From: Patescibacteria group bacterium
Lineage (GTDB): Bacteria; Patescibacteriota; Patescibacteriia; UBA1558; GWA2-36-10
Direction of reading: 5' to 3'
DNA: 64,000 nt
Assembly (NCBI GenBank): GCA_041665545.1
Contig: JBAYIQ010000004.1
Span: 18,132 to 82,131, forward strand
Shown: in pieces, positions 9,360-43,556 of the stretch
How the letters are laid out: the number at the start of each line of letters is the position of its first letter
How positions within the stretch are numbered: position 1 is the stretch's first letter
The notes under the pieces: model-generated
The model's database searches: none
What the model was told of the DNA's origin: nothing
The model's input: only the letters and a program-made list of their open reading frames with translations
Made by a program: the position numbers and the translations under genes

Positions 9360-9384
9360 AAATAAAAAAACGCCAACCCCATAC

Positions 9385-10429: not shown

Positions 10430-10437
10430 ATTTTGTT

Positions 10438-11184: not shown

Positions 11185-11211
11185 AACCTAGTTTAGATAA
11201 CTAGTTTAGAT

Positions 11212-11251
11212 GTGCAAAAAAACCGCCTAAATTGAGGCGGTCTTTTTTTTG
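11212..11251. terminator. Bidirectional rho-independent terminator between convergent genes
   Basis: A-run, hairpin ACCGCC-TAAATTG-AGGCGGT, then TCTTTTTTTTG. It serves the plus-strand gene ending at 11184 and minus-strand yidC, whose stop lies within the stem. Confidence 0.7.
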
Positions 11252-11922: not shown

Positions 11923-11925
11923 ATT

Positions 11926-12538: not shown

Positions 12539-12541
12539 AAT

Positions 12542-12682
12542 TTAGAGACTTATTTTCTTTCGGCCCCTGGCTTTTCGTCTTTTCAAGACTTTTCGACCAT
12601 CTTTGGTGGCCATGCGCTTCATAAAGCCGTGCTTTCTGGCTCTTTTTCTTTTTTTTGGTTGGTATGTCCTTTTTGTTGCCAT
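12542..12682 (-). CDS. rpmH: 50S ribosomal protein L34
   Basis: A 46 aa ORF missed by the 60 aa track cutoff: [46 protein letters not shown], near-consensus L34. It is immediately upstream of rnpA. Confidence 0.85.
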
Positions 12683-12841
12683 ATAAAATTAAATTACCTA
12701 AATAAAATAACATATTTACTTAATTTAATCAAGGGGAGTCACCAACTTGATTATACCCACATTTTATTAACAATTTATGCACTCTCGGTCTTATTTGAGC
12801 ATTTAAAAATATGTGGTATATTTACTGCAGTTTGTAAAAAC

Positions 12842-14212: not shown

Positions 14213-14445
14213 ACTGTTGACTAGTTGGTGGGCGCTTGTGTAAATCTCCTGGAAAATAATTTTTTTTAAAAGACAAGATTAAAATCGCGACTTTCTGCAC
14301 AGAGTTATCAGGTGGTCGTGCACAAGACAAATAGATAAATAAACACAAAATCACTGAACAAATACTTTATACAGCTCAAACTTATCAACATATGCACCGC
14401 GCCTACTACGGCTATATAATATATATATAAATTAATAATAAGTAT

Positions 14446-15552
14446 ATGAAAATTATTTGCACGCAAGAAAATTTAAATTACGGATTGGGATTAGTTTCAC
14501 ATATCGCCAATAAAAACAGTAATTTGCCCATATTAAACAATGTTTTGATTAAAGCGGAGAAAGAGGGCATTACTCTAATAACCACTGATCTAGAAATCGG
14601 CGTAAAGGTTTTTGTGCGTAGCAAAGTAGAGGAGGAAGGCGCCTTTACCGTGGATGCTAAACTGTTAAATAGTTTTATTAATTTATTACCAAAAGAAAAC
14701 ATTACCCTGACCTTGGGCGAGGATAATAGTTTGGAAGTGAAAAGTAAAAATCAAGACACGGCCATTCGCGGCATGGAAGCCGAAGACTTTCCACTCATAC
14801 CAGAAATTTCTAAAGACAATGAAATTGAAGTGTCGTCTTTGGATCTCAAAAAAAGCTTGAGCCAAGTAATATTTGCCGCTTCACTGGACAACACTAGAAT
14901 AGAAATAAACGCGGTCAATTTTAATTTCAAGGGAGAGCAATTAACCTTGGCCGCCACTGATAGTTATCGTCTAGCCGAAAAGAAAATAAAAATTGCCAAC
15001 CAAAGTAAAGAAAGCAATTTAATAATCCCCCTAAAAACCCTACAAGAATTATTGCGCATTTTAAATGAAAATTCTGAAAAAAATCTAAAAATATATTTTA
15101 ACGAAAATCAAATAATGTTTTCACTGGATGGTGTGGAGCTAGTCTCCAGAGTAATTGACGGCAACTATCCAGACTACAAGCAAATTATTCCCGACAAATT
15201 TAATACCAACATCAAGTGCGATGCTGATAAATTATTGCCAGCCATCAAAGCAGTTTCTCTTTTTTGTAAGCAGGGGATTAACGACATTAGGGTAAGCTTC
15301 GACAACGCTACCAATGAAATTGTTATTACCACCGCCTCATCGCACGCTGGAAAAAGTCTGGCCAAGGTGCCAGCCGAAATAAGCGGAGAAAACAACGACA
15401 TTGTTTTCAATTATCGTTATATTATAGACGGATTAAACAATATTGATCAAAAAGAGGTGTTTATTAATATAAACAACAACACTTCGCCGGGATTGATAGG
15501 GCCAGTGGGCCATGACGACTATATTTACCTGGTTATGCCGATTAGACAATAG
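14446..15552 (+). CDS. dnaN: DNA polymerase III beta subunit (sliding clamp)
   Basis: N-terminal MKIICTQENLNYGLGLVSHIANKNSNLPILNNVLIKAEKEGITLITTDLEIG is the typical DnaN domain I. It follows dnaA. Confidence 0.85.
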   Translation: MKIICTQENLNYGLGLVSHIANKNSNLPILNNVLIKAEKEGITLITTDLEIGVKVFVRSKVEEEGAFTVDAKLLNSFINLLPKENITLTLGEDNSLEVKSKNQDTAIRGMEAEDFPLIPEISKDNEIEVSSLDLKKSLSQVIFAASLDNTRIEINAVNFNFKGEQLTLAATDSYRLAEKKIKIANQSKESNLIIPLKTLQELLRILNENSEKNLKIYFNENQIMFSLDGVELVSRVIDGNYPDYKQIIPDKFNTNIKCDADKLLPAIKAVSLFCKQGINDIRVSFDNATNEIVITTASSHAGKSLAKVPAEISGENNDIVFNYRYIIDGLNNIDQKEVFININNNTSPGLIGPVGHDDYIYLVMPIRQ

Positions 15553-31935: not shown

Positions 31936-33357
31936 ATGTCTGTAATGAGTAAAATATTTACCAATACTATTTGGCAGATAGTAATAAGGTTTTTTGATGT
32001 TATTGTTGGGGTTGTAAACATCGGCATAATTACCCGTGTTTTGGGTCAAACACAATTTGGATTTTATACCACAATTTTTGTGTTCTTGCAGACAGTAATG
32101 ACCATAGGCGATTTTGGCCTGTATTTGACCCTATTGAACGAAGTGTCGGCTACTCAAGACAAAAAAGAGGAGAAAAAAAGGATTGATAATATTTTTACCA
32201 TTCGCTTGGTTTCATCGCTGATAATTTTTGCTCTAGCGCCACTGTTGATAAAATTTTTCCCCTACGATCAAGCAGTAAAGGTCGGGGTTATTTTTTTGGC
32301 CGGCGCATTTTTTTGGCAAAGCTTGGTTTCTACTTTGACAGCGGTGTTTGCCAAATATTTGGACATGGCCAAGGCAACGCTAGTTTATCTGATTGCAAGA
32401 TTGGTTTATTTGTGGCCCCTCATATATATTTATCAACACAGCGGTACCTTAAATCAAGTACTTTTTTGGAATACACTTAGCACCGCCGTTGGTTTTTTTG
32501 CTTTATTGATTTTTATACAAAAGCACCAGCGCTTAGGGATGGGCTGGAATTTTGCCTATTGGAAAAAAGTTTTTAAAATTGCTTGGCCATTGTCTTTGGG
32601 TGTAGTACTTAATCTGGTTTATTTCAAGGCCGACACTCTTATTTTGTCGGCCTATCATTCAGCGGAAAAAGTCGGTCTCTATGGCGCGGCCTACAAAGTA
32701 TTGGAGGTTTTGGTGACCTTCCCACACATGTTTATGGGTTTGATTTTACCCCTTTTTGTAGCCTCTTGGGTGAAAAAAGATTTTGAAAAGTTGAGAGTAA
32801 TTCAACAGAGTACTTTTAACTTTTTTTCTATCATCAATATTTGGATGATTTTGATTGTTTGGTTGATGAGCAGAAAAATAATGTTGTTAATCACTGGACC
32901 AGAGTTTGTCCAGTCAGCGCCGATTCTAAATATTTTGGTTTTGGCTGTGGTGGCCATATTTTTTGGCACCATGTTCACCTACTTAGTCGTGGCCATGGGT
33001 TTGCAGAAAAAAATGCTTAAATTTTATTTTTTGACAGCTGTTTTTGGTCTGACCGCTTATTTTTTATTTATTCCCGAATATGGCTATTGGGCCGCGGCTA
33101 TTATTACGGTGCTAGCCGAAGTTTTTGTTTGGGTAGCCGCTTACTTTTTGGTCAAAAAAAGTGCCAATTTTAGCTTAAAAACAGGAATTATGTGGCGTTC
33201 TGTGCTGGCGGCGATATTAAGTTTTGTTTTGTTTTGGCCACTGCGTGGTTGGCCAGTTATATTTTTGGGACTTGGCGTTTCAGTCTTTTATTTCTTGATG
33301 CTTTTTGTTTTGCGGGCCATCAAAAAAGATGAGCTAAAAATTATATTAAATAAGTAA
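31936..33357 (+). CDS. Polysaccharide-biosynthesis or flippase family membrane protein (Wzx/MurJ-like MOP superfamily)
   Basis: A 473 aa polytopic protein (about 12-14 TM). The N-terminus (IWQIVIRFFDVIVGVVNIGIITRVLGQTQFGFY) and overall pattern are typical of Wzx-type oligosaccharide flippases. Confidence 0.5.
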   Translation: MSVMSKIFTNTIWQIVIRFFDVIVGVVNIGIITRVLGQTQFGFYTTIFVFLQTVMTIGDFGLYLTLLNEVSATQDKKEEKKRIDNIFTIRLVSSLIIFALAPLLIKFFPYDQAVKVGVIFLAGAFFWQSLVSTLTAVFAKYLDMAKATLVYLIARLVYLWPLIYIYQHSGTLNQVLFWNTLSTAVGFFALLIFIQKHQRLGMGWNFAYWKKVFKIAWPLSLGVVLNLVYFKADTLILSAYHSAEKVGLYGAAYKVLEVLVTFPHMFMGLILPLFVASWVKKDFEKLRVIQQSTFNFFSIINIWMILIVWLMSRKIMLLITGPEFVQSAPILNILVLAVVAIFFGTMFTYLVVAMGLQKKMLKFYFLTAVFGLTAYFLFIPEYGYWAAAIITVLAEVFVWVAAYFLVKKSANFSLKTGIMWRSVLAAILSFVLFWPLRGWPVIFLGLGVSVFYFLMLFVLRAIKKDELKIILNK

Positions 33358-33358
33358 A

Positions 33359-34648
33359 ATGTTGAATTTATTTTTTATTTTAATCGCTGGATTTATCTTC
33401 GCTTACGTCGCTAAAAAAAATATTTTGTGGGGCCTGTCATTAATTATTATTTTTTTGCCAAGTTATCTTTGGCGTTTCCAGATATTGTCCTTGCCCTCAA
33501 CTTTTTTAGAGCTGATGATTTTGATATTATTTTTTATTTGGCTGATTTATTCTAAGCCCTATAAAAAAGAATTTTGGTTGGCACAAAAAATAGAAAAAAA
33601 ATGGTTTTATTTATCAATACTTTGGCTAATAGTTAGCTTTGTAGCTTGGCTGTATAATCCAACCATAAAATCTTTGGGTCTTTGGCGCGCTTATTTCTTG
33701 GAGCCGTTGTTATTTTTTGCGGTGCTTATCACCAGCTTGAAAAATGCCAAAGATTACCAGATAATAATAAAATCAACAGCCATTTTAATTTTCTGGTTGG
33801 CTATTTTTGCTATCATCCAAAATTTTACCGGCGCTAATTTACCAGCAGCCTTCGATTTCCCGAAAACCAAGAGATTAACCAGTGTCTTTTTGTATCCCAA
33901 CTCTTTGAGCCTGTTGACGGCCGGTATTAGCGGATTTTTGGTGGCCTATTATATTTATGTTCAGCGGAGGTGGGAATATTTAGCTATTGGGATCTTAGGA
34001 ATTTTTTTATCTTGGTGGGCAGTGAGCCAAGGGGCTCTAATGGCAATATTTTTCGCTTTTATTTTATTTGGGGCAGTGAAATTATATAAAAGATTAAAAA
34101 ATAAAAAACAAAAATATTTATTTTTTTTAATAATCATTTCTTTGCTGTTAATATTTTTTAATAGTCGCTTATGGACTGATGTTAATCAACAGCTTTTTCA
34201 TCCAACTCTTGATTTGCAGGCTACTTCATTAGAAATACGCAGTAGCCAGTGGCAAGAAACTTATGTTTTGCTTAAAGACAATTGGTTTAAGGGCGCAGGA
34301 CTCAATGCTTATCAAATCAAATTTATACCGTATCACAAAATAGCTTGGTTAGAAATATTTTTATATCCACATGATATATTTTTAAATTTTTGGGTTGAGT
34401 TGGGACTCCTTGGCTTGTTGACTTTTTTACTTATTTTGTATTTTATTGGTCAGGAAATAAAAAAATTGTTTTTTGAAAAAAATAATTTAGCTTGGCCACT
34501 GCTTATTTTCTGGCTTATCTGGCTGATTCAGGGTTTAGTAGATGCACCTTATTTTAAAAACGATTTGAGTTTATTGTTTTTTATATTTTTGGCTCTGACC
34601 ACGCAAGCTAGAAACATAAAAACAATTTACAAGGAAGCTGAATTTTAG
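33359..34648 (+). CDS. O-antigen ligase / O-oligosaccharyltransferase family (Wzy_C, WaaL/PglL-like) membrane protein
   Basis: A polytopic protein with a periplasmic-loop region resembling the Wzy_C domain (AYYIYVQRRWEYLAIGILGIFLSWWAVSQGALMAIFFAFILFGA). It is translationally coupled to the upstream flippase gene. Confidence 0.45.
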   Translation: MLNLFFILIAGFIFAYVAKKNILWGLSLIIIFLPSYLWRFQILSLPSTFLELMILILFFIWLIYSKPYKKEFWLAQKIEKKWFYLSILWLIVSFVAWLYNPTIKSLGLWRAYFLEPLLFFAVLITSLKNAKDYQIIIKSTAILIFWLAIFAIIQNFTGANLPAAFDFPKTKRLTSVFLYPNSLSLLTAGISGFLVAYYIYVQRRWEYLAIGILGIFLSWWAVSQGALMAIFFAFILFGAVKLYKRLKNKKQKYLFFLIIISLLLIFFNSRLWTDVNQQLFHPTLDLQATSLEIRSSQWQETYVLLKDNWFKGAGLNAYQIKFIPYHKIAWLEIFLYPHDIFLNFWVELGLLGLLTFLLILYFIGQEIKKLFFEKNNLAWPLLIFWLIWLIQGLVDAPYFKNDLSLLFFIFLALTTQARNIKTIYKEAEF

Positions 34649-34665: not shown

Positions 34666-34745
34666 CCCCGTTAGAAATTCACGGGGATTAAATAATTGCC
34701 AAGCAAGTAGTATATTAGCTTATTATAATGATGATTTCTAACGGG
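34666..34745. repeat. Inverted-repeat element of the CCCGTTAGAAATT family (copy E2), ending at the galU start
   Basis: CCCCGTTAGAAATT at 34666-34679 is itself a local hairpin (CCCCG-TTAGAAATTCA-CGGGG). Its partner ATTTCTAACGGG at 34734-34745 is followed immediately by GTGAAAAAGAT. The 25-mer ATTTCTAACGGG[G/A]TGAAAAAGAT is nearly identical to the one at 46615-46639. Confidence 0.5.
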
Positions 34746-35612
34746 GTGAAAAAGATTAGGAAGGCAGTAATTCCGGTGGCGGGATTTGGCACTAGATTTT
34801 TACCAGCCACCAAGGCTCAGCCCAAGGAAATGTTGACCGTGGTTGACAAGCCGATCATCCAATATATTGTGGAAGAAGCCGTGCAATCGGGCATTGAAGA
34901 GATAATTTTTGTTACTTCAGCTAATAAACGCGCTATTGAAGATCACTTTGATCGCAATTTCGAGCTAGAATACCGCTTGCGACAAAAAGGGAAAAAAACC
35001 GAGCTGGCCGAGATGCTGAAAATTTCGGACATGGCCAAATTTATTTATGTCCGCCAAAAAACACCAAAGGGCTTGGGGCATGCCGTACTGACTGCTCGAG
35101 AGCTGATCGGCGATGAGCCGTTTGTGGTGATTGCTGGTGATGACATTATTGACTCTAAGGTGCCGGCCATAAAACAACTAATGCGGGTTTATGAAAGGTA
35201 TGAAGATATAGTTTTGGGCGTCACCAAAGTAGATAAAAAAGAAACTTACAAATACGGCATTATTGATCCTATAAAAATTGACGAGCGCACAGTCGAGATA
35301 AGAAGGCTGGTCGAAAAACCCGCTTCCAACAAAGCGCCTTCTAACTTGGCAGTCACTGGTCGCTATATATTGACCCCAGAAATATTTGATTTTTTAGCCA
35401 AACAAAAGCCCGGTGCTGGTGGTGAAATACAATTGACTGACGCCATTGCCCGCTATATCAAAGAACGGGCTGGCTACGCCTGTCTTTATGAGGGAGATTA
35501 TTATGACTGTGGTAACAAACTAGAGTTTATGAAGGCCATTATAAATTTTGGTCTAAAAAGATCGGCCTTTAAGAAAGAGTTAAAAAAATATTTACGTCAA
35601 ATAGTAAATTAA
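34728..35612 (+). CDS. galU: UTP--glucose-1-phosphate uridylyltransferase
   Basis: KAVIPVAGFGTRFLPATKAQPKEMLTVVDKPIIQYIVEEA is the GalU N-terminal signature. An alternative in-frame GTG start at 34746 directly follows the repeat element. Confidence 0.85.
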   Translation: MMISNGVKKIRKAVIPVAGFGTRFLPATKAQPKEMLTVVDKPIIQYIVEEAVQSGIEEIIFVTSANKRAIEDHFDRNFELEYRLRQKGKKTELAEMLKISDMAKFIYVRQKTPKGLGHAVLTARELIGDEPFVVIAGDDIIDSKVPAIKQLMRVYERYEDIVLGVTKVDKKETYKYGIIDPIKIDERTVEIRRLVEKPASNKAPSNLAVTGRYILTPEIFDFLAKQKPGAGGEIQLTDAIARYIKERAGYACLYEGDYYDCGNKLEFMKAIINFGLKRSAFKKELKKYLRQIVN

Positions 35613-35613: not shown

Positions 35614-36978
35614 ATGCGTGGCTACAAAATAATTACATTATTATTAATCGGGGTGTTTGTCATTACCTCTGGTTTTGGTTGCAAGGGTTTGGGCTGTTCT
35701 ACAGATAGCGCTAGTCAGCCCGTAGCCCTTACTTACTGGGGAGTTTGGGACAGTCCCACGCAAGTTTCTGGTTTGATTCAAGAATATCAGTCCAGTCACC
35801 CGACCGTAAAAGTCATCTACAAACAACTTCGCTATGAAGAGTACGAAAGAAAACTATTGGAAGCCTGGGCTGATGATAGAGGGCCAGATATTTTTGCCAT
35901 TCCAGCCAGCTGGCTCAATAAATATCAAAACCGCATCGTGCCCATGCCCAGTGTTGTCCAAATTCCAGTGCAGGAAATAAAAGGCACATTAAAAAAAGAA
36001 ACAGTCGTGACCGTACAAACAGTAAAAGGGCTTAAGGCCGATGAGGTTAAGGACCAATACGTTGATGTGGTCTACAACAACGTTGTTAAGAACAACCAAA
36101 TATATGCCCTACCCTATTCGCTAGACACGCTAGTCACTTTTTACAATGAAGATTTACTTGATCAGGCCAGCTTGCCAGAAAAAATTGTTACCTTCAATGA
36201 TCTAGTGGATCAGACTAGCCAGCTGACCAAAGTGACTACGGACAACAAAATAGTTCAATCAGGCGTGGCCTTGGGTACGGCTGACAACATACCAAGATTT
36301 TTTGACATAGTTTCTAGTTTGATGCTTCAAACCGAGGTCAATCTGAAAGGGACAAAATTTAATCCAAGTAGTGGAGAGCAATCAGCTGCTCGTTTTCAGG
36401 AGGCCATAAATTTTTATATTAGTTTTGCTCGTCCGGGCTTGGCTTCGTATTCTTGGGACAAAAGTCTGCCCAATGCTTTTGATATGTTTAGCTCTGGTAA
36501 ATTAGCTTATTTTTTTGGCTATAGCTATCACGCGGATGCTTTGCGTAAAGCGGGCGTGCCATTTGAGTGGGGTATTACCAATTTCCCACAAACCGAAGGG
36601 TCGCAAGGCACAAAATACTACGCTGATTACTGGGTCAATGTTGTAGCCAAAAAATCCAAGAATCAAGGCGTGGCTTGGAACTTTGTGCAAAATACAGCCA
36701 GCGCCCAAAATGTCAAAAAATATTTGGATCAAAATAAAAAACCAACTGCCTTGCGCTCTTTGATTACTGGTCAAAAAAATGATCCTGACATTGCCCCTTT
36801 TGCCAATCAGGTTTTGACAGCCGACAACTGGTACACTGGCTATGATTACCCCAAAGCCGAGGCGTACATGGCCGAGTTTATCAATGGACTAGCTGACAAC
36901 AAGATTGACATCAACAACCAAGCTGATTTGAAATTATTTATTGATAGAATAAATCAAACCTATCAACCCAATCAATGA
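35614..36978 (+). CDS. Secreted or lipoprotein-like protein resembling family 1 extracellular solute-binding proteins
   Basis: Signal peptide with Cys residues (ITSGFGCKGLGCS). LTYWGVWDSP...YEEYERKLLEAWADDRGPDIFAIPASW is typical of ABC sugar-binding proteins, but no permease or ATPase genes are adjacent. The stop overlaps the next ATG (ATGA). Confidence 0.45.
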   Translation: MRGYKIITLLLIGVFVITSGFGCKGLGCSTDSASQPVALTYWGVWDSPTQVSGLIQEYQSSHPTVKVIYKQLRYEEYERKLLEAWADDRGPDIFAIPASWLNKYQNRIVPMPSVVQIPVQEIKGTLKKETVVTVQTVKGLKADEVKDQYVDVVYNNVVKNNQIYALPYSLDTLVTFYNEDLLDQASLPEKIVTFNDLVDQTSQLTKVTTDNKIVQSGVALGTADNIPRFFDIVSSLMLQTEVNLKGTKFNPSSGEQSAARFQEAINFYISFARPGLASYSWDKSLPNAFDMFSSGKLAYFFGYSYHADALRKAGVPFEWGITNFPQTEGSQGTKYYADYWVNVVAKKSKNQGVAWNFVQNTASAQNVKKYLDQNKKPTALRSLITGQKNDPDIAPFANQVLTADNWYTGYDYPKAEAYMAEFINGLADNKIDINNQADLKLFIDRINQTYQPNQ

Positions 36979-37667
36979 AATACTTTAAAATAATAATTTT
37001 AGTAGCCGTTACTTTGCCCTTGCTAGCTTTTGCCCAAACAACACCACCAGGGTTTTTGGACACCTTGGGGGGAGATTGTATGAAAAACGGCGACTGTCAA
37101 CTAGCCGACGTAGCCACTGGTTTTATTTTGTTGACCAAGTTACTGCTCGGGGCTATGGGAGCCGTGGCTTTGCTGTATTTTGTAATTGGTGGCTTCCAGT
37201 GGATGACTTCCCAAGGCAACCAGGAAAGAGTGCGTAAGGGCCAGCAGACCATGACCAACACTGTTATTGCTTTGTGTATTGCCTTTACTAGTTATTTACT
37301 ATTGAACTTTTTTGTTAATGATATTTTGGGAGTAAAAAGTGATTACATGATTGGCGATGCTCCAACTCAGTGTGAAGGTAAGTCAGATGGGACGGCTTGT
37401 AATGTGGTTGCTGGTAGCACATATATAAACCCCTATGAATGTTTTTCGGGAGAGTGCGTCACTAAGTGTAAAGTAAAAGCCAACATGACCAGTTTGAATT
37501 GGCAGTGCTATACTGTGCCAAATCCAGAATTAATATCAACAGACACTACTTATTATGAAAGAAATTTGTGCCCCGGTGATGAATACACTGTTTGCACCTT
37601 GTTAAATGCCAGTGGAGAACCAGCTGATCCAGCTTATCAAGCGTTCCTACATCGTTTTGTTCCTTGA
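36975..37667 (+). CDS. TrbC/VirB2-like T4SS-pilin-family paralog 1, with Cys-rich C-terminal extension
   Basis: Signal peptide, then the conserved core GAMGAVALLYFVIGGFQWMTSQGNQERVRKGQQTMTNTVIALCIAFTSYLLLNFF (two TM helices around a GGFxWxTSxGN loop). A roughly 110 aa tail carries 10 Cys (QCEGKSDGTACN...ECFSGECVTKCK...WQCY...NLCPGDEYTVCTLL). Confidence 0.55.
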   Translation: MKYFKIIILVAVTLPLLAFAQTTPPGFLDTLGGDCMKNGDCQLADVATGFILLTKLLLGAMGAVALLYFVIGGFQWMTSQGNQERVRKGQQTMTNTVIALCIAFTSYLLLNFFVNDILGVKSDYMIGDAPTQCEGKSDGTACNVVAGSTYINPYECFSGECVTKCKVKANMTSLNWQCYTVPNPELISTDTTYYERNLCPGDEYTVCTLLNASGEPADPAYQAFLHRFVP

Positions 37668-37785
37668 TTATAAAATTATGCACATTCACTCCGTTAAATA
37701 AAATTTAAACACAGTTTAAATTTTAAATTTGCTACATGACCACATATAAATTATACGCCAATGAAAAATATAAAAAATAAATCTG

Positions 37786-37866
37786 TCATTGCGAGTCCCG
37801 TCGAGCTGAGCTCGACGGGATGTGGCAATCCCGATGAGATTGCTTCGCTCCGCTCGCAATGACAAT
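37786..37866. mobile_element. MITE-like palindromic element, family B
   Basis: An 81 bp element with perfect 12 bp terminal inverted repeats TGTCATTGCGAG / CTCGCAATGACA. It contains an 11 bp-stem hairpin TCCCGTCGAGC-TGA-GCTCGACGGGA. A related fragment (CCCCGTCGCG-TCAGA-CGCGACGGGG followed by CTCGCAATGAC) is at 7551-7583. It lies 10 bp upstream of the pilin paralog 2 start. Confidence 0.5.
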
Positions 37867-37875
37867 CATAAATAT

Positions 37876-38205
37876 ATGAAAAAAATAATAAATTTATTTT
37901 GGTTAGCCACTCTTCCTCTATCTGCTTGGTCGGCAACAGACGGGAAAATTGAGCTTGAAAACCCCGTATCAGCAGATAGTGTGCCAGAACTTATCAATAC
38001 TGTAATTAAAGCAATTTTAGGCATAGTCGGCGCCGTAGCTTTGTTGTATTTGGTGTTGGGTGGTTTCACTTGGCTGACTTCCCAAGGCAATCCGGAAAAA
38101 GTAAAAAAAGGCCGAGAGACATTGGTTTGGGCGATCTTTGGTCTAGCTATGATTTTCTTTAGCTACGTGATATTGAATTATGTCTTTACCGAATTTTTAA
38201 AATAA
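37876..38205 (+). CDS. TrbC/VirB2-like T4SS-pilin-family paralog 2
   Basis: ORF track 37822..38205; the true start is MKKIINLF, because the upstream part is the MITE. Signal peptide LATLPLSAWSA, then the core ILGIVGAVALLYLVLGGFTWLTSQGNPEKVKKGRETLVWAIFGLAMIFFSYVILNYVF. Confidence 0.55.
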   Translation: MKKIINLFWLATLPLSAWSATDGKIELENPVSADSVPELINTVIKAILGIVGAVALLYLVLGGFTWLTSQGNPEKVKKGRETLVWAIFGLAMIFFSYVILNYVFTEFLK

Positions 38206-38223
38206 ATATAATTTTTTTGGTTC

Positions 38224-38252
38224 TTGATGTTTTGTGGTTTTTAGACTATAAT
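38224..38252 (+). promoter_or_regulatory. Putative promoter for pilin paralog 3 (TTGATG-17-TATAAT)
   Basis: TTGATGTTTTGTGGTTTTTAGACTATAAT lies about 65 nt upstream of a strong Shine-Dalgarno (AGGGGGTGA) and the ATG at 38317. Confidence 0.4.
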
Positions 38253-38316
38253 ATTATTAGTAAAAAGTACCTTGTTATTAATTATTAAAATCCTAAAAAT
38301 GAAAGGGGGTGAAGAA

Positions 38317-38682
38317 ATGAAAAAATTATTAGTTTCATTAATGCTTTTAGCGCCATCAATGGCCATGGCTCAAGCTCCTGTTGTGGAAGATGACCCATTT
38401 GGTCGAAACACCTTACAAGAGCTTTCAACAGCTGGTGAAAGTAAAGATATATTTGTGGTTATTTCAAACATTGTTAATATTATCTTGACTTTCTTAGGCG
38501 CTATTGCTGTGTTGTTATTCCTTTATGGTGGATTCAAGTGGTTCACCTCTCAAGGTAATAGTGAGCAAATTGAAGCTGCCAAGAAAATCATGGGCGCTGC
38601 CGTTGTTGGCTTGGCCATTATTTTCGCTTCATACGCCGCCGCTCAATACATCTTCGATCAGTTGTCGAATCAACTTTTATAG
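38317..38682 (+). CDS. TrbC/VirB2-like T4SS-pilin-family paralog 3
   Basis: Start MKKLLVSLMLLAPSMAMAQA (signal peptide) after the Shine-Dalgarno. Core LTFLGAIAVLLFLYGGFKWFTSQGNSEQIEAAKKIMGAAVVGLAIIFASYAAAQYIF. Confidence 0.55.
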   Translation: MKKLLVSLMLLAPSMAMAQAPVVEDDPFGRNTLQELSTAGESKDIFVVISNIVNIILTFLGAIAVLLFLYGGFKWFTSQGNSEQIEAAKKIMGAAVVGLAIIFASYAAAQYIFDQLSNQLL

Positions 38683-38756
38683 TGGTATATTTGGATTCAA
38701 GACATATAGTCTAGACTATAGTAGGCAAGCTTTTTGCCTACTAAGGTGTGAATTAT

Positions 38757-39146
38757 ATGTATAAATATATTATTTCATTATTTCTATTGTTGCCCTTTAC
38801 TGTCCTAGCAGTGAATCCTTTGGATTCTTTGAATGAGGCAGCCGGAGGCACTGGCTTGGTGAGTAATAAAACTCCGATTCAGATTGTTACTAGCATCATC
38901 AACACCATCCTTTATTTTGTGGGGGCTATAGTTATTGTCCTGATGCTTTGGGCGGGCTTCAAGTGGATGACTTCAGCTGGCAACACTGAAGCCATCAAAA
39001 AATCTAGAGAAACTATTATCAATGCCGTGATTGGCTTGGTAATTATTTTTGCGTCTTATGTGATAGTCAATTTTGTGATGTTAAGACTTATTGAGGGTAT
39101 TGGTGTTGGTGGCACTGGAGGTTCTCCGGCGACAGTTGCTGATTAA
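38757..39146 (+). CDS. TrbC/VirB2-like T4SS-pilin-family paralog 4, Gly/Thr/Ser/Pro-rich C-terminal tail
   Basis: ORF track 38748 (GTG); the ATG at 38757 has the better Shine-Dalgarno (AAGGTG). Signal peptide ISLFLLLPFTVLA. Core LYFVGAIVIVLMLWAGFKWMTSAGNTEAIKKSRETIINAVIGLVIIFASYVIVNFV. Tail GIGVGGTGGSPATVAD. Confidence 0.55.
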   Translation: MYKYIISLFLLLPFTVLAVNPLDSLNEAAGGTGLVSNKTPIQIVTSIINTILYFVGAIVIVLMLWAGFKWMTSAGNTEAIKKSRETIINAVIGLVIIFASYVIVNFVMLRLIEGIGVGGTGGSPATVAD

Positions 39147-39169
39147 GGGTTCTAGTTAAATTTTTATAA

Positions 39170-39215
39170 AATAAAGCGGCTCCAGTCCATTGCGACTAGA
39201 GCCGTTTTTTCGATG
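39170..39215. terminator. Bidirectional terminator between pilin paralog 4 (+) and the 39230 lipoprotein (-)
   Basis: CGGCTCCAGTCCATTGCGACTAGAGCCG hairpin with an A/T-run on the upstream side and GTTTTTTCG on the downstream side. Confidence 0.5.
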
Positions 39216-39229
39216 AGGTGTGTGTTTTT

Positions 39230-39913
39230 TTATAGCCTGATACAGCCACCCCTGTCCAGCAGCATACCCTGATTGTTGTTGGGGATAAAGTCATTGATCA
39301 AGAAGACAGCGTCAACTGACCGACCCTGCCACGGCACCTTGTGTCCGGGCGCAAGATTTCGACAGCCACGGATGACTCGTCCTCTGTCTTCCCAAACCAG
39401 TACGAAGTCGCCAGCTGCGATGAAGATGATTTTCTCTTCGTGGGGACGAAGAGTAAACACCGGCCCTTGTATGTTTTGGAAGGTTTTGGTCTGAGAGCTG
39501 ATGTTTTTTACCACTACCTCTAGCCGCGCCCAGCCTTGCACGAGGAATTCATCAACGATAATTGGCTCGCCAGTGTACAGACCGACTACGTGGTTTTCTT
39601 CCCCGTGTAGCACCTGGTCATTTCCTACCCATGGAGCCGTCCAGATTTCGTAACGTATGTATTTTTGTGCTCTCGTTTCTACAGGGAAGTCCCTTCCGTA
39701 GGGGAGTGGGATCTTGGGTCCACCGTTGACTGACACAACGGCCCAGCCAATGTAGTGCCGTTGGAAGGTCAATGTGACGGTGGGTGGGTTATCGCCGTAG
39801 GGATGATCGAGAGCGCGACCCTGTTCGTCGCGGAACTCGGTGCCGAGGCCCAAGCAGCCACAAAGGGGCAACAGGGCCATCAGGCACAGGGAGATAAGCA
39901 CATAGCGACGCAT
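39230..39913 (-). CDS. High-GC lipoprotein, unknown function
   Basis: ORF track 39230..39925 (GTG); the ATG at 39913 (MRRYVLISLCLMALLPLCGC lipobox-like) is preceded by Shine-Dalgarno GTGAGGTG. GC is about 53%. It has its own exact TTGACA-17-TATAAT promoter. I recognise no domain. Confidence 0.5.
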   Translation of the reverse strand: MRRYVLISLCLMALLPLCGCLGLGTEFRDEQGRALDHPYGDNPPTVTLTFQRHYIGWAVVSVNGGPKIPLPYGRDFPVETRAQKYIRYEIWTAPWVGNDQVLHGEENHVVGLYTGEPIIVDEFLVQGWARLEVVVKNISSQTKTFQNIQGPVFTLRPHEEKIIFIAAGDFVLVWEDRGRVIRGCRNLAPGHKVPWQGRSVDAVFLINDFIPNNNQGMLLDRGGCIRL

Positions 39914-39976
39914 ATAGCACCTCACTTGTTGAATGTTCTTTTTTTAGGCCCAAAATAGGGCTTTTACTAACACTAT

Positions 39977-40042: not shown

Positions 40043-41950
40043 TTGTGCTATAATTATTGTATGAATTTTGTTAGTAAAATAAAATTGGCTATAGCCAAAC
40101 ATAGCCAAAGATATTTGTGGGTTAGCATTTTAGCTTTTATTTTGCTATTTACTTTTTTGGTTCTTAAGAAATATTATTATTTTGGCTACAATATTTCTGA
40201 TTTGGGAATTTTTAATCAAACCTTTTTTAATACTTTGCAGGGGCGCTGGTTTGCTGAAACTATTACTTTGAACAATTATCTAGCTGATCATTTTTCACCT
40301 GGCTTGATTTTTTTATTGCCATTTTACGCTATCAAGCCATCAGCTATTACTCTGTTAATTATTCAGGTAGTGATTACCGCCCTATGCGCTTGGCCAATTT
40401 ATCTTATTGCCAAAAAATATTCCAGCAATGTTATTTTCGCTTATGGTGCAGCTTTTTTGTGGCTGATTAATCCTTTTGTTCATCGTCAGGTGTTATTTGA
40501 GTTTCACATGTTGCACCTGATGGTCTTTTTATTTTTTTGGGCTTTTTATTTTTATCAACAAAAAAAGATTAAGTGGTTTGTATTATTTTTTATTCTTACC
40601 CTACTTACTCGTGAAGATGCTGTTTTTTTATTTTTGGGTCTGGCCCTGTTTAATGTGCTAGAAAAAAGATCACTAAAGTTTAGTGTTAATATTTTTACTT
40701 GTTCACTAATATATTTTTTTGTGGCCACTTATATTATTCATTTGATTTCGCCAGCTGGTAGTTTCAAATTTTTGGTATATTATGATTGGCTAGGAGGCAA
40801 TAGTTTTGTTAGCATTATTTTTAATTGGTTAAAGCACCCTCTGGCCGTGCTTGGCCATATTTTTACCATAAATAATATTATTCTTATTTTTTATTATTTT
40901 TTGCCATTTCTTTTTATTCCTTTTTTAGCCAAGAAATATTTACTTTTGTCATTAGTTCCATTTTCGCTATATCTGATGAAGAACGGCGGTATCAATGGTG
41001 TCCAGTTACAAACGCATTATGTCATGTTTTTGATGCCCGGAATTTTCTTGGCCTATATTTTTGGGCTTTGGGGTATATTTAGTAAAAAAAATGATCGAAA
41101 ATTAAGATTGGTTTATAAGCACCAGCCGTTTTTTATTGCTTTATTTATTTTTTCGATTTTATTTTTTTTGATATTTGACACACCCATTCCTTCATTATTT
41201 AGCAAGAAATTTTTACCAAATTATCACCAAGATCGGCAAAAAATAATTGACTTGATTCCACCCCAGTCAGCAGTATGCGCCGATTCATCATTTTTGCCGG
41301 CCCTGAGCTTACGCGAGAAGCTTTATAATATTGATTATGCTTATTATGGCAAAACAATATTTGCGGAAAGAGATTTTAGCTTGCCAAAAGTAGACTATAT
41401 ATTGATGGACATGAGCCAGTTTATTTCCACCAAAAATGACAGTAATGGTCCACTGTATTGGAAGCACGGTGATCCGCTGACTATGCCGGATCGTTGGGGG
41501 GCTGTTTTGGCAGATTATGATTTGACTTATGCTCAAGACAATATTTTTTTGTGGCAGAGCAAAGATGCTTTTGTTAGAAAAAGCTTGCCGTATTTTGAGC
41601 TTAGACCAGTGGAGGGCGGAGAAGGTGATCTGCTCACAAATTGGTCATTGACCCAGTCGGCTGAGGCGCAGATATTGAAAATAAATTACAACAAGTTGGA
41701 CACCAATTATTATTTAGTTAGATTTTATCAGAATGATCAATACTGGGAAACACTTTTTGATTATGGGCTTTACTCAAAAGCGCAAAATGAAGCTGGTCAA
41801 ACAGCAACAGTTTATTATTATTTAAACAGTGCAGTGGATTCTTTTGAGATTTATCATTATGAAAGTCGCAATGTTTTGGGTGACTGGAGTAATCTTGGTC
41901 TGCTTATCAAAAGAGAAAAAGTATTTGATAGGACTTATTTTAGTAAATAA
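40043..41950 (+). CDS. Large polytopic membrane protein (about 14 TM), DUF2079-like; possible GT-C-fold glycosyltransferase
   Basis: A 635 aa protein with N-terminal FGYNISDLGIFNQTFFNTLQGRWF, then many TM helices and a about 250 aa extracytoplasmic C-terminal domain. The family assignment is from memory of DUF2079-type N-termini. Confidence 0.35.
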   Translation: MCYNYCMNFVSKIKLAIAKHSQRYLWVSILAFILLFTFLVLKKYYYFGYNISDLGIFNQTFFNTLQGRWFAETITLNNYLADHFSPGLIFLLPFYAIKPSAITLLIIQVVITALCAWPIYLIAKKYSSNVIFAYGAAFLWLINPFVHRQVLFEFHMLHLMVFLFFWAFYFYQQKKIKWFVLFFILTLLTREDAVFLFLGLALFNVLEKRSLKFSVNIFTCSLIYFFVATYIIHLISPAGSFKFLVYYDWLGGNSFVSIIFNWLKHPLAVLGHIFTINNIILIFYYFLPFLFIPFLAKKYLLLSLVPFSLYLMKNGGINGVQLQTHYVMFLMPGIFLAYIFGLWGIFSKKNDRKLRLVYKHQPFFIALFIFSILFFLIFDTPIPSLFSKKFLPNYHQDRQKIIDLIPPQSAVCADSSFLPALSLREKLYNIDYAYYGKTIFAERDFSLPKVDYILMDMSQFISTKNDSNGPLYWKHGDPLTMPDRWGAVLADYDLTYAQDNIFLWQSKDAFVRKSLPYFELRPVEGGEGDLLTNWSLTQSAEAQILKINYNKLDTNYYLVRFYQNDQYWETLFDYGLYSKAQNEAGQTATVYYYLNSAVDSFEIYHYESRNVLGDWSNLGLLIKREKVFDRTYFSK

Positions 41951-41954
41951 TCAA

Positions 41955-43556
41955 CTAGTAAGTTATTTTATAAATTAGAAAATATTTATCTTCATAAGAC
42001 AGGGAAATATTCCGGTCTTTTTTTATATTGGCAATCAGGTTTTCGTGTCGATTTTTTTCCACGAAAATATAGCTACTCTTGAAATTACTTTTAATTTCCC
42101 AAGCCAAGTTGTCTTTTAGGTCACCCCTGGCGATATCAATGTATTTTTTTTGTAAATCAGGATGCGAAAAATACATAAAAGAAAAGTCTAAACCAACAAT
42201 GTAATAATTGTGGTCGTTATAATAAAAAAGCATTGGCCACTCATCCCAATCTTCGTGAAAGACTATACTATTTTTGGGGGTATTATTTTTTAACCAATTA
42301 GCGCTTGGCTGATAGCGATCAATTGGGAGATCTTTAGGCGTTTTGGTATCCAAGATTTTTTTGTAAATATTTGGTTGCGCAAGAATACAAAAAATAGCTA
42401 AATAAATTAGCAAGAAAGTTTTTTGCCACCTCAGTAGAGATTTGAAATACTTAGTAATTGTTTTAAGGCCAATTTTTTTTATAATATCGGTCCAAGCGCT
42501 GGCTGTAAAAATTAATAAAAAAGGCAGATAATATTCAATAAAACGATATGATTTTATGGTCAATAACAAAAATAAAAAACTTAGTAAAAAACTGAACCAG
42601 CTCAAATGGCTTATTTTTTTGTAGTTGAAAAACAAAATTATTATAGCAATTACCCCTAGGATAAAAAAATAGTCTCCCGCAGAGATTACTTGCGGAATTG
42701 AGCGACCATACCACTCACCGCCAACGGAAAAAAGATAGCCATAGTTGATGACGCCAATTAGAAAAAATTGCTCGTAATAAAACTTTAAATTGTGGGGGAA
42801 ATAGGGGTTGATTATTACTCCTGCTAATAAACCACCCACCAAGAATAGCAAGGTTTTTTTATCAGCAATGAATTTATTTTTATCATCCCAAGATATGAGC
42901 AGGCGTTGGTGAAAAAGCTTGATTTTTTTGTGGTGTATAAAATCATAAATAGCCGTAGCCAGCAAAAAAATAAGGCCTATTAACATGGCGATTGGCCAGC
43001 CACCATATAGCCAGACAAAAAGAAAACACAGAATGAAAATTAGCCAGCGTTTTTTGTAATATAAGGCATAAATTAAAAAACAGACAAATATTAAAGACAA
43101 GCTATTTACCTTGATTAAGGTCAGGCGAAAAGTAAGGTCAGGCAAGCTGATGAGTAAAAAAGTCCACAGCCATGGCCAGATAATACTTAGCTTTTTAAAC
43201 AGCCAGTAGAAAGTGAGTCCCATTAAAGCGGCAAAAAATATTGTGGCCACCTTGACTCCGATTAGCGGTGATTGGATATAAGTAAAAGGCACTAATAATA
43301 AGTGATAAAGCAGGTGATGGTCAGTAAAGTGCTCAGTAATTGAGCTGTATTGCATCCACGGCAAGCTTTTGAGTAATATACCGTGTCTTAGGAAATCAGC
43401 CACCTTGGCGTGGTAAAAGCCGTCAGGATCGCCTATATAGCCACCCCACTGCAAACAAGCATAATAAAACGCTAAAACCAAAAAAATCAGCCAATAATCT
43501 AATTTGAGCTGGAAGAATATTTTTTTAAATTTTAGCCATTTTTCTTCAGCTGTCAT
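41955..43556 (-). CDS. Large polytopic membrane protein, GT-C-like (PMT/ArnT-type) candidate glycosyltransferase
   Basis: A 533 aa protein. The first extracytoplasmic loop carries a GDPDGFYHAKVA acidic motif reminiscent of the GT-C DxD/DE...Y motif. It has many TM helices and a C-terminal soluble domain. Confidence 0.35.
   Translation of the reverse strand: MTAEEKWLKFKKIFFQLKLDYWLIFLVLAFYYACLQWGGYIGDPDGFYHAKVADFLRHGILLKSLPWMQYSSITEHFTDHHLLYHLLLVPFTYIQSPLIGVKVATIFFAALMGLTFYWLFKKLSIIWPWLWTFLLISLPDLTFRLTLIKVNSLSLIFVCFLIYALYYKKRWLIFILCFLFVWLYGGWPIAMLIGLIFLLATAIYDFIHHKKIKLFHQRLLISWDDKNKFIADKKTLLFLVGGLLAGVIINPYFPHNLKFYYEQFFLIGVINYGYLFSVGGEWYGRSIPQVISAGDYFFILGVIAIIILFFNYKKISHLSWFSFLLSFLFLLLTIKSYRFIEYYLPFLLIFTASAWTDIIKKIGLKTITKYFKSLLRWQKTFLLIYLAIFCILAQPNIYKKILDTKTPKDLPIDRYQPSANWLKNNTPKNSIVFHEDWDEWPMLFYYNDHNYYIVGLDFSFMYFSHPDLQKKYIDIARGDLKDNLAWEIKSNFKSSYIFVEKNRHENLIANIKKDRNISLSYEDKYFLIYKITY

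Follow-up and report, generated by a model that had tools for sequence, protein, structure and literature searches.

Tandem VirB2 arrays in Patescibacteria are of a kind already published. In one survey, 441 such arrays of 2–11 genes were found in 383 Patescibacteria assemblies with a mean intra-array identity of 25%, and no more than 1135/1948 assemblies had a pilin gene close to virB4 (Quinonero-Coronel et al. 2025, PMC12102498). The described arrays include the six-pilin array of Southlakia epibionticum ML1 (Wang et al. 2023, PMC10633639), which is essential (PMC10633639, PMC12857230), and in Saccharimonadia the array lies inside an essential type IV secretion system (T4SS) cluster (PMC10633639). 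In cultured Minisyncoccaceae, genes for PF18895 pilins rank among the top signal-peptide genes by expression level (PMC10936435), and a pilus of such proteins is unseen in any Patescibacterium (PMC10633639, PMC12857230). Related proteins are VirB2 (A. tumefaciens T-pilin), TrbC (RP4) and TraA (F), all of PF04956, and the small VirB2-like two-helix protein Mbov_0395 / MMCAP2_0565 of Mycoplasma ICEs (NF045849), a single gene in the cluster of a monoderm-type (MPF-FATA-like) transfer system. Several tandem virB2-like genes are also found in the host-dependent Bartonella, Anaplasma and Rickettsia, where the copies are thought to vary in connection with immune evasion or host range.

We analysed a window of 64 kb from the chromosome of an ultra-small Patescibacterium (CPR) related to Komeilibacteria (GTDB class ABY1), in which four open reading frames on the same strand, P1, P2, P3 and P4 in that order, form an array (Table 1). 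The sequence-only reading had called these four tandem, diverged TrbC/VirB2-like pilins, and this was confirmed: the locus encodes four ancient, non-redundant pilin paralogues of the VirB2/TrbC superfamily (PF18895). All four exceed the Pfam gathering cut-off of PF18895 (T4SS_pilin; 26.6 bits), so the resemblance to pilins is not due to chance, and across the window only these four open reading frames match a profile built from the family. Each protein has a signal peptide with an AXA-type signal-peptidase site (AFA|Q, AWS|A, AMA|Q and VLA|V in P1 to P4) and two predicted hydrophobic segments, the helices being joined by a GGFxWxTSxGN motif and a basic loop. Invariant columns of the four-way alignment include G73, F74, W76, T78, S79, G81 and N82, and further along E84, F104, S106 and Y107. 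The Sec signal, the common GGF-W-TS-GN loop and the two-helix topology that had been read from the letters were all borne out, the topology also by an AlphaFold2 helical hairpin for P1. The mature N-terminal segments and C-termini are unlike between paralogues, as had been noted (12% and 7% identical, respectively), and the other paralogues are 29–36% identical to P1.

Table 1. Features of the array and its surroundings (window coordinates)
Feature	Position	Strand	Evidence or remark
galU-type UTP-glucose-1-phosphate uridylyltransferase, first gene of the module	34728..35612	+	PF00483 NTP_transferase, 8e-36
Orphan sugar-type ABC substrate-binding lipoprotein (SBP)	35614..36978	+	phmmer vs PDB
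P1, long pilin, 230 aa	36975..37667	+	PF18895 35.5 bits
GC-rich nested palindromic repeat between P1 and P2	37784..37864	no strand	inverted repeats I6, I7
P2, short pilin, 109 aa	37876..38205	+	strongest of the four against family models, PF18895 59.1 bits
Sigma-70-type P3 promoter, TTGATG-17-TATAAT	38224..38252	+	10/12 match
Extended, near-perfect Shine-Dalgarno (SD) of P3, AAAGGGGGTGA	38302..38312	+	read from sequence
P3, short pilin, 121 aa, proposed major subunit	38317..38682	+	PF18895 34.2 bits
Predicted intercistronic RNA hairpin, ~60 nt	38695..38773	+	MFE -30.6 kcal/mol, z = -5.7
P4, short pilin, 129 aa, Gly-rich C-terminal tail	38757..39146	+	PF18895 35.9 bits
GC-rich terminator-like hairpin between convergent P4 and lipoprotein genes	39177..39204	no strand	11-bp stem, 7 GC pairs
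Convergent lipoprotein Lp231, likely start ATG 39913	39230..39925	-	positionally conserved array partner
DUF2079 polytopic membrane protein, about 11 TM	40043..41950	+	PF09852, 1.5e-59
533-aa polytopic membrane protein with C-terminal soluble domain	41955..43556	-	about 9 TM segments

P1–P4 have in common with VirB2, TrbC and TraA the signal peptide, the two hydrophobic helices and the short positively charged loop, and P2 (27.0 bits, E = 5e-6) and P4 (26.3 bits, E = 9e-6) match PF04956 just under its curated cut-off of 27.9 bits. However, solved VirB2 gave no significant sequence-profile or fold match: a family profile searched against the PDB gave A. tumefaciens VirB2 no better than E = 0.21, and Foldseek with the P1 model returned nothing significant, the best pilin being 8dfu at E = 1.6. 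The host is monoderm and has not one pilin but four distinct paralogues; virB genes do not adjoin them, and the proteins show no sign of cyclisation. P4 and P2 also fall below the 40-bit cut-off of NF045849 (39.4 and 36.8 bits), and unlike the single gene of the Mycoplasma ICEs, P1–P4 are a chromosomal multi-paralogue array. The described Patescibacteria arrays are likewise tandem, sequence-divergent PF18895/PF04956 genes with Sec signals on a CPR chromosome, with low intra-array identity, no relaxase context and an origin-proximal location (dnaA is 24 kb from the array here). In contrast to those arrays, P1–P4 lie away from a T4SS cluster and are fused to an operon of galU and an orphan SBP gene. 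What is added here is the positional orthology, the purifying selection, the galU-SBP context, the P1 head, the P3 signals and the conserved RNA hairpin. The keyword-matched passages of PMC12102498 and PMC10633639 mention no fixed positional orthology, purifying selection or Cys-rich head on a long first pilin, and no third-gene promoter with SD or conserved RNA hairpin.

P1–P4 have 1:1 orthologues at the same positions in about 50 related loci, including lineages whose RecA is only about 70–80% identical. The order is constant: the long P1 is first in all loci, P2 second, P3 third with the hairpin directly 3′ of it, and P4 is always the first pilin past the hairpin, with P5 and P6 added in some lineages. 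This bears on the possibility that the array is a store of interchangeable variants, their exposed ends changing rapidly for host match or escape from recognition. Such a role has been proposed for the VirB2 copies of Bartonella and Anaplasma, is raised for Patescibacteria in PMC12102498 as speculation, and is matched by the sequence-only reading, which took the exposed parts to be diversifying. The low identity between paralogues and their unrelated termini fit such a picture, as do the variable P1 head (184–334 aa in total P1 length, with varying module number) and the faster evolution of exposed segments among orthologues (41–67% identity, against 63–83% in the helices). However, each position holds a distinct type, no copy-number turnover was seen for P1–P3 among related loci, and ten P1 cysteines are invariant. 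The comparison of orthologous arrays that had been proposed as a check gave gene-wide dN/dS of 0.03–0.20 (P2 0.03–0.10, P3 0.07–0.12, P4 0.10–0.13), indicating purifying selection and resembling the values of neighbouring envelope genes (wzy, DUF2079). The expression signals also differ between array positions, which argues for different roles and against interchangeable variants. Diversification or antigenic variation is therefore largely refuted and very improbable as an account of the array, and P1–P4 are instead an old, conserved four-subunit set under purifying selection. Their stable orthologous types set them apart from the Bartonella, Anaplasma and Rickettsia clusters.

P1 differs from the others in its layout, with a signal peptide, a short Cys-containing N-segment, the VirB2-like helical hairpin and a C-domain of ~115 aa that is rich in cysteine. 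AlphaFold2 places the signal helix at residues 2–21 and the helical hairpin at 43–77 / 83–117 (pLDDT ~78), and models the C-domain as mixed alpha/beta (pLDDT 57–83). The ten invariant cysteines lie in the P1 termini (20 orthologues). The C-domain has no Pfam match, and among 1.84 billion representatives it matched only P1-like pilin fusions and, weakly and over short stretches, very large proteins. These features suggest a lineage-specific, disulfide-rich head that is probably extracellular.

The array belongs to a conserved module of galU, an orphan SBP lipoprotein, the pilins, a convergent lipoprotein and two polytopic membrane proteins. galU is immediately 5′ of the SBP gene in every related locus with sufficient flank, and this adjacency is also found in the more distant loci L057 and L058, despite their differing outer context; the DUF2079 gene is downstream in relatives too, these two included. 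The SBP of the window has no Pfam match, its orthologues match PF01547/PF13416, and phmmer against the PDB found sugar-binding proteins (4r9f MBP1, 2e-12; 4g68, 1e-11). Its N-terminus is a hydrophobic segment followed by cysteine (...SGFGC), and the 64 kb window yielded no permease or ATPase gene for it. In all close relatives the TGA stop of the SBP gene and the ATG of P1 overlap (ATGA), and the junction is retained in relatives down to 40–42% SBP identity. The 533-aa membrane protein has a GT-C-like architecture, orthologues in relatives and no Pfam match. Lp231, a beta-sandwich lipoprotein, is anomalous in composition. At the hairpin between P4 and Lp231 the scan scored the minus strand, and TTTTTT follows the stem 3′ on the plus strand.

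Genes of the VirB4, VirB6, VirB3 and VirD4 types were found neither in the 64 kb window or 4 kb upstream nor adjoining the array in about 50 related loci. The VirB2-like hairpin proteins might have been exapted for an envelope module independent of any T4SS, a surface structure or an uptake or sensing complex tied to surface-glycan metabolism. In it they would work with both lipoproteins, the sugar-binding and the convergent one, and with the two GT-C-like membrane proteins; a filament that captures sugars or glycosylated fibres on the surface are possible products. The module genes travel together though the outer context changes, the P1 start overlaps the SBP stop in close relatives, a virB4-sized gene never adjoins the array, Wzx and Wzy/O-antigen-ligase genes lie just 5′ of the module, and in locus L015 a stand-alone P1-like pilin is beside GtrA and two weak GT-C-like matches (PMT_2, AftA_N). 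All of this is gene neighbourhood, however, and the pilin family is homologous to T4SS pilins, one array of which lies within the essential Saccharimonadia cluster (PMC10633639). Separation of pilin and virB4 genes is common (PMC12102498), and VirB4 is encoded by ABY1 relatives: Table S1 of PMC12102498 lists Komeilibacteria genomes, of class ABY1, as 'VirB4 present'. We regard the envelope module as unlikely, and consider it fairly probable that P1–P4 are pilins of a T4SS encoded elsewhere in the genome, with P3 as the major subunit, P1, P2 and P4 as minor ones and the hairpin setting their stoichiometry.

The signals around P3 are what suggest this division. The P3 promoter element is identical in kind across eight close loci, and of the roughly 40 loci in the wider set, most have a TTGxAA-17-TATAAT counterpart; GAAAGGGGGTGA or GAGAGGAGGTGA stands 6–8 nt upstream of the P3-type ATG in essentially all related loci. 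We place the P3 start at ATG 38317 because it follows AAAGGGGGTGA by 5 nt and the orthologue L006 lacks the ATG further upstream (38299). For P4 the start is ATG 38757, preceded by AAGGTG; its promoter scan gave a single weak 9/12 site (38662–38691), and a -10-like TATAGT was seen by eye at 38717–38722, within the hairpin 5′ arm. P3 and P4 had each been credited with promoter-like and SD signals, which stands for P3 and for the SD of P4, but a separate P4 promoter is not well supported. A conserved sigma-70 promoter with a near-perfect SD is peculiar to P3 in the array.

Between P3 and P4, a 14 bp palindrome and a hairpin had been described as two elements. Both are present, the palindrome ATAGTCTAGACTAT at 38706–38719 (a perfect 16-mer when extended, TATAGTCTAGACTATA, 38705–38720) and the upper stem at 38719–38728 / 38734–38743, but they are not separate: the 16-bp palindrome lies in the 5′ arm of one extended hairpin. 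The 3′ arm in this clade holds the P4 SD and AUG, and the AUG is paired in 10/10 close-clade sequences. The core is identical in ten loci found via protein homology, and a DNA pattern found 40 more metagenome loci, in which every hairpin with long enough flanks lies within an array of pilin genes, oriented as they are and 3′ of a P3-type gene. RNAalifold predicted 13 pairs, four with compensatory changes, 8/13 being fixed by the search pattern in the 40 loci; 98.3% of cells in the alignment are paired, shuffles giving 90.4 ± 0.9 (0/500). In L057 the 5′ box is retained and the stem fully re-coded, and in the more distant L058 another hairpin is found at the same position. There was no Rfam family match. 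From these predicted pairings, we read the spacer element as one conserved RNA hairpin with compensatory changes.

The spacer could instead act as DNA, with the palindrome as the operator of a dimeric regulator and TATAGT as an internal P4 -10. The 12–16 bp perfect dyad symmetry is invariant in all protein-homology loci, including L057 (42% SBP identity), the 5′ arm is more conserved than pairing alone demands, and TAGACTATA(A/G)T is found in the window only at the spacer and the -10 region of the P3 promoter. However, compensatory and G-U changes maintain pairing in the variable part, the G-U pairs are valid only in sense-strand RNA, inspection of the spacers by eye showed no conserved -35 element, and distant clades pair the left half of the palindrome with a distal UAGAYUA. 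A DNA element in place of an RNA hairpin is therefore fairly unlikely, though the two readings are compatible and not exclusive.

If P1–P4 are T4SS pilins, they would insert into the membrane as two-helix hairpins whose loop faces the cytoplasm, and would next be pulled out and polymerised to form the pilus or conduit of a monoderm-type system encoded elsewhere and serving the host-dependent life of the phylum. P3 would be the abundant major subunit because of its own promoter, near-consensus ribosome-binding site and conserved ~60-nt hairpin 3′ of the gene, the expression signals from which the major and minor assignment is wholly inferred. P1, P2 and P4 may be low-abundance subunits (tip, adaptor or base), with P1 bearing the disulfide-rich extracellular head and having its translation coupled to that of the binding lipoprotein. 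The hairpin may terminate or stabilise the P3 message and, by pairing the P4 SD and AUG in this clade, may restrain P4 translation and so fix the stoichiometry. In the pap operon, the strongly expressed papA major subunit gene is followed by a stable stem-loop, giving a high ratio of major to minor subunits. P3 and its hairpin would resemble papA-type pilus operons in design, with unrelated proteins and assembly machinery.

The repeat between P1 and P2 is an insertion outside the pilin system and the source of a spurious upstream start for P2. We place that start at ATG 37876 and not GTG 37822 because the longer GTG open reading frame begins within the repeat. The P1–P2 spacer is ~4–16 nt in loci L005, L006, L007, L011 and L012, L009 has a related insert, and a related copy of the repeat lies at about 7500–7590 in the window.

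Four tandem open reading frames on one strand, P1 to P4, make up the pilin array, in agreement with the sequence-only reading once their gene starts were corrected (see table). By alignment and hydropathy each product has a signal peptide with an AXA-type site, a first long hydrophobic helix closed by the GGFxWxTSxGN motif, a K/R/E-rich loop and a second helix with F..SY, which is the PF18895 architecture of a signal peptide and two hydrophobic helices joined by a short polar/basic loop. The motif held in the four-way alignment, and the helical hairpin was recovered in the AlphaFold2 model of P1 (19 orthologues as input), where a signal helix at residues 2–21 precedes the hairpin helices at 43–77 and 83–117 (pLDDT near 78). 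Membership in PF18895 (T4SS_pilin) is established: P1, P2, P3 and P4 score 35.5, 59.1, 34.2 and 35.9 bits, all above the gathering cut-off of 26.6, and their orthologues bear the same family as precomputed annotation. For PF04956 (TrbC/VirB2), P2 (27.0 bits, E = 5e-6), P4 (26.3 bits, E = 9e-6) and P1 (10.9 bits) fall below the cut-off of 27.9 bits, and P3 has no match. The E-values of P2 and P4 are significant but lie under the curated threshold, pointing to superfamily-level relatedness to classical VirB2/TrbC rather than membership. The original description of TrbC/VirB2-like pilins was essentially right. The closest NCBIfam model is NF045849 (Mycoplasma ICE pilin-like, Mbov_0395 conjugal transfer protein), whose 40-bit cut-off is approached by P4 (39.4) and P2 (36.8) and not by P3 (22.0) or P1 (13.4). 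Judged by their family, the four proteins probably serve as pilus subunits.

Structure searches added little. A 32-member family profile run against the PDB reached A. tumefaciens VirB2 8cue at E = 0.21 and 8exh at E = 8.8; its top matches, designed 'Pizza' proteins, were dismissed as artefactual. Foldseek of the P1 model against the PDB returned nothing at E ≤ 0.001, and the A. pernix conjugation pilin 8dfu matched at E = 1.6 with a TM of 0.61, such hairpins being too simple for a fold search to discriminate. A family profile search of the 64 kb window found no pilin-like open reading frame besides P1–P4.

Features of the pilin array, its surroundings and related loci (window coordinates unless a locus handle is given)
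Feature	Position	Strand	Remark
Peptidase_C39_2-like protein and 239-aa protein	1430-2904		window left edge; L004 8268-10655
GC-rich multi-palindrome stretch	7440-7680		
Kindred copy of GC-rich repeat	~7500-7590		within the stretch 7440-7680
Origin region	8000-15552		
GC skew sign switch	~8-10 kb		
rnpA, yidC, dnaA, dnaN	11.2-15.6 kb		dnaA at 12629
Surface-glycan genes	31936-34648; 40043-43556		
galU	34728-35612	+	
SBP	35614-36978	+	454-aa lipoprotein
Pilin array	36975-39146	+	P1 to P4
P1	36975-37667	+	230 aa, corrected start
GC-rich repeat	37784-37864		between P1 and P2
P2	37876-38205	+	109 aa, corrected start
P3 promoter	38224-38252	+	sigma-70-type, TTGATG-17-TATAAT
P3	38317-38682	+	121 aa, corrected start
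P3-P4 spacer element	38695-38773	+	
Palindrome (16-mer)	38705-38720		in 5′ arm of the hairpin
P4	38757-39146	+	129 aa, corrected start
Lp231	39230-39925	-	convergent lipoprotein
Solitary P1-like pilin, L015	5905-6843		~297-312 aa, 14 Cys
Solitary P1-like pilin, L016	5992-6885		~297-312 aa, 14 Cys
Pilin and glycan-type neighbours, L015	2279-6843		
Alternative hairpin, L058	5690-5760		

The array is an old arrangement rather than a set of interchangeable variants. P1 has 26 full-length homologues at 39–92% identity, and across their loci and nine species-representative genomes the order rpoC, ftsK, HTH, recA, wzx, wzy, galU, SBP (the substrate-binding lipoprotein gene) and P1–P4 is kept, followed after P4 by the convergent lipoprotein, a DUF2079 protein and a 533-aa membrane protein. 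Scanning metagenomes with a DNA pattern of the P3–P4 spacer added 40 loci, most of which carry before the spacer, in this order, a P1-type frame (184–334 aa), a P2-type frame (∼110 aa) and a P3-type frame (∼120 aa), with an extra pilin 5′ of the spacer in some lineages; the frame after it is usually assigned to the P4 type, in distant loci only narrowly, and is sometimes followed by a P5 or P6. This positional orthology across loci indicates that P1–P4 are old, distinct subunit types. The dN/dS ratio (Nei–Gojobori, closest genome pairs, dS 0.4–0.9) was 0.05–0.20 for P1, 0.03–0.10 for P2, 0.07–0.12 for P3 and 0.10–0.13 for P4, beside about 0.11 for both wzy and DUF2079, 0.04 for SBP and 0.01 for recA. 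Exposed segments are 41–67% identical among orthologues versus 63–83% for the helices, and are thus far from free. Neither the suggestion that the surface-exposed parts are diversifying nor a comparison with the diversifying VirB2 families of the Bartonella/Anaplasma type agrees with these low ratios and the stable positional orthology.

Arrays of this type have been described. In 2025, 3,035 Patescibacteria genomes were surveyed with the PF18895 and PF04956 models, which gave 441 'VirB2 arrays' in 383 assemblies, holding 2–11 tandem pilin genes with a between-copy identity of 25% on average and 54% at most (PMC12102498). P2–P4 share 29–36% identity with P1, and the present locus falls under the survey's definition of at least two PF04956/PF18895 genes, in tandem or one gene apart and of low identity, in a Patescibacteria genome. 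With such arrays already in the literature, the overall novelty is modest; the new details are the conserved four-subunit organisation, the coupling to SBP and an unannotated RNA hairpin. A large part of bacterial diversity belongs to the Patescibacteria, which live attached to other microbes, and the T4SS with its pilin array is among the few systems proven essential for that attached life. The pilin array of Southlakia epibionticum is part of the T4SS cluster and is required for epibiotic growth (PMC10633639), PF18895 proteins are among the most strongly expressed secreted-protein genes of cultured Minisyncoccaceae (PMC10936435), and a 2025 review termed a pilus an 'intriguing possibility' (PMC12857230). 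Four fixed, distinct subunits with different expression signals in one large lineage recast the question of why there are so many pilins as a testable model of major and minor subunits. Concrete handles offered by the locus are P3 as candidate shaft, P1 as candidate tip with a disulfide-rich head, the conserved RNA hairpin, and an unexpected but conserved association of the array with a sugar-binding lipoprotein and genes of surface-glycan metabolism.

The expression signals differ along the array. P1 and P2 have no obvious Shine–Dalgarno sequence of their own and follow SBP directly, the stop codon of which overlaps the P1 start (ATGA), an arrangement that predicts translational coupling of SBP to P1. 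P3, in contrast, has its own sigma-70-type promoter and an extended Shine–Dalgarno sequence, AAAGGGGGTGA, as had been noted from the sequence; of ∼40 loci, essentially all keep the Shine–Dalgarno sequence before the P3-type gene, and most keep the promoter. A box shared by the region 5′ of P3 and the hairpin, TAGACTATA(A/G)T, was considered as a common regulatory motif, but P3 promoters of distant clades do not have it, so the sharing may be coincidence.

Between P3 and P4, the palindrome and the hairpin of the sequence-only reading are both present, though the palindrome is a 16-mer rather than 14 bp, and the two belong to a single extended hairpin (−30.6 kcal/mol, z = −5.7). All ten loci reached via protein homology share an identical 5′ arm, UAGUCUAGACUAUAGUAG, and the inner stem covaries, with a UA to CG exchange in 10 sequences and an adjacent pair that occurs as CG, UA, AU, GC or GU. 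Paired cells reach 98.3%, against 90.4 ± 0.9 in shuffles and 23–46% with a slid partner, to be read with the fact that in the 40 pattern-derived loci the search query itself fixed 8 of the 13 hairpin pairs. At L057, a related locus reached through SBP, the 5′ box is kept and the stem is entirely re-coded (ACCCAUCAU/AUGAUGGGU). The palindrome may also act at the DNA level, as an operator and −10 box, possibly alongside an RNA role; the G–U pairs on the sense strand argue for RNA. In the window's clade the P4 Shine–Dalgarno sequence and AUG lie within the 3′ arm, with the AUG paired in 10 of 10 sequences, and the lower stem of more distant clades is UAGUCUAG paired with CUURGAYUA 5′ of P4.

A covariance model matched the window at a single site, where the opposite strand gave a weaker echo. 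Rfam gave no match to the hairpin, its sole match in the window at the gathering threshold being a tRNA and its best overlapping match within 36900–39300 being AaHKsRNA22 at E = 6.3. A canonical intrinsic terminator is ruled out by the lack of a U-tract 3′ of the stem, and integron attC, shufflon and MITE readings by the presence of one copy per array at constant position and strand; no further copy of the element occurs elsewhere in the window. A competing upstream hairpin, GACCTA...TAGGTC, was dropped on inspection for pairing that is inconsistent among lineages. At L058, a related locus of a still more distant lineage, the conserved 5′ box is missing and a different, strong 12-bp GC-rich hairpin, CCCACCCTTCTT / AAGAAGGGTGGG, stands at the same position after a pilin gene, which suggests that a hairpin at this place is an older and more general feature than the box.

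We propose that P1–P4 would be exported by Sec, have their signals cleaved and be held in the membrane as hairpins, from which a T4SS encoded elsewhere would assemble them into a pilus or conduit towards a host cell. P3, with its own promoter, the strongest Shine–Dalgarno sequence and a 3′ hairpin that could stabilise or process its message, would be the major subunit, with the headed pilin P1, P2 and P4 as minor ones; in the window's clade the hairpin would mask the P4 ribosome-binding site and so keep P4 low. Taken as a whole, we regard this scheme as fairly probable. The T4SS of this scheme would lie outside the locus: no VirB4, VirB6, VirB3 or VirD4-type gene was found in the 64 kb window, in the 4 kb 5′ of it or in ∼50 related array flanks, and a Pfam scan of all window frames of at least 90 aa gave no T4SS machinery, its matches being housekeeping genes and a genuine FtsK. 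Related Komeilibacteria/ABY1 genomes are listed as VirB4-positive, a pilin gene lies close to virB4 in just 1135 of 1948 assemblies, and ABY1 T4SS loci lie near comF, recG and radA (PMC12102498), none of which is present at the window locus.

In the main alternative the module would act independently of a T4SS, jointly with the binding lipoprotein and the surrounding glycan machinery. SBP belongs to the sugar-type ABC substrate-binding proteins (PDB 4r9f, 2e-12; orthologues PF01547/PF13416) for which no ABC permease or ATPase gene occurs anywhere in the window. Its family counts at least 733 members (E ≤ 1e-10), the source-named ones from Patescibacteria or unclassified bacteria. SBP and galU always lie 5′ of the array, and the galU–SBP–pilin module is retained at 40–42% SBP identity despite a changed outer neighbourhood (L057 and L058), the predicted coupling of SBP to P1 being conserved down to 40% identity. 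Set against the PF18895 membership of all four proteins and the VirB4-positive listing of ABY1 genomes, we consider this alternative unlikely. A more elaborate version, quite improbable in our judgement, would make galU, SBP, P1–P4, a beta-sandwich lipoprotein and a GT-C-like membrane protein a self-contained ABY1-type surface-fibre system with pilins exapted from a T4SS, in which P3 forms the shaft and the Cys-rich P1 the tip, acting together with the sugar-binding lipoprotein, and a new, family-specific cis-regulatory RNA hairpin sets the subunit ratios.

The glycan genes flanking the array encode a Wzx flippase, a Wzy_C/O-antigen-ligase-like protein, GalU, a DUF2079 protein (∼11 TM) and the 533-aa neighbour, which has ∼9 TM and a soluble C-domain. 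Neither the 533-aa protein nor Lp231, the convergent lipoprotein 3′ of P4, gave anything useful in Pfam at E ≤ 5. Wzy_C-domain proteins include pilin O-glycosyltransferases, so glycosylation of P1–P4 is a possibility.

P1 differs from its paralogs in a ∼115-aa C-terminal domain, which together with the N-segment holds 10 invariant cysteines; P1-type proteins of other lineages have up to 24 cysteines in total. The domain, which the P1 model renders with moderate confidence, has no useful Pfam match at E ≤ 5, and in a phmmer search of 1.84 billion representatives it occurred only in P1-like pilin fusions, apart from matches in very large proteins that look compositional and yield no functional lead. 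Since VirB2 topology places both termini outward, the domain would form an extracellular head, which suggests a tip or adhesin role. Two more long P1-like pilins, in L015 and L016, end in a different C-terminal domain (...HPPSDPPTHIHIS). Each is solitary, outside arrays and in an unrelated context: the L016 gene adjoins MgtE and an ECF sigma factor, and the L015 gene has GtrA and two weak GT-C-like matches (PMT_2, AftA_N) as neighbours. L016 shares one MAG with the L013 array, and L015 belongs to another MAG.

The surroundings are a core chromosomal stretch around the replication origin of a Patescibacteria (CPR) genome, running yidC, rnpA, dnaA, dnaN, ruvA, femAB, a Mur ligase, rpoB, rpoC, ftsK, an HTH protein, recA, a Wzx-type flippase, a Wzy/O-antigen-ligase-like protein, galU and the pilin region, with DUF2079, yebC, ruvC and glycogen-type genes 3′ of it. 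The array lies ∼24 kb from dnaA, which fits a published observation that in Patescibacteria T4SS-related genes tend to lie near the origin. ENA contig ERZ27249449 k141_380813 carries the same sequence, and relatives are labelled Patescibacteria or Ca. Komeilibacteria, the latter being GTDB class ABY1 (PMC12102498). Four MAGs (L008, L010, L011 and L012) have a clearly patescibacterial locus, yet are titled 'uncultured Gammaproteobacteria bacterium', probably a bulk-submission labelling error. At the window's left edge, next to the Peptidase_C39_2-like protein and a 239-aa protein, the sequence just beyond the edge encodes a 795-aa surface protein of the LTD/PKD-domain type.

A GC-rich nested palindromic repeat, TGTCATTGCGAG ... 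TCCCGTCGAGCTGAGCTCGACGGGA ... CTCGCAATGACA, is inserted between P1 and P2, where close relatives have a spacer of ∼4–16 nt and where L009, too, carries a related insert. The repeat generates a spurious start of a reading frame ('MAIPMRLLRSARNDNH') and, with its kindred copy in the window, resembles a small mobile or REP-like element.
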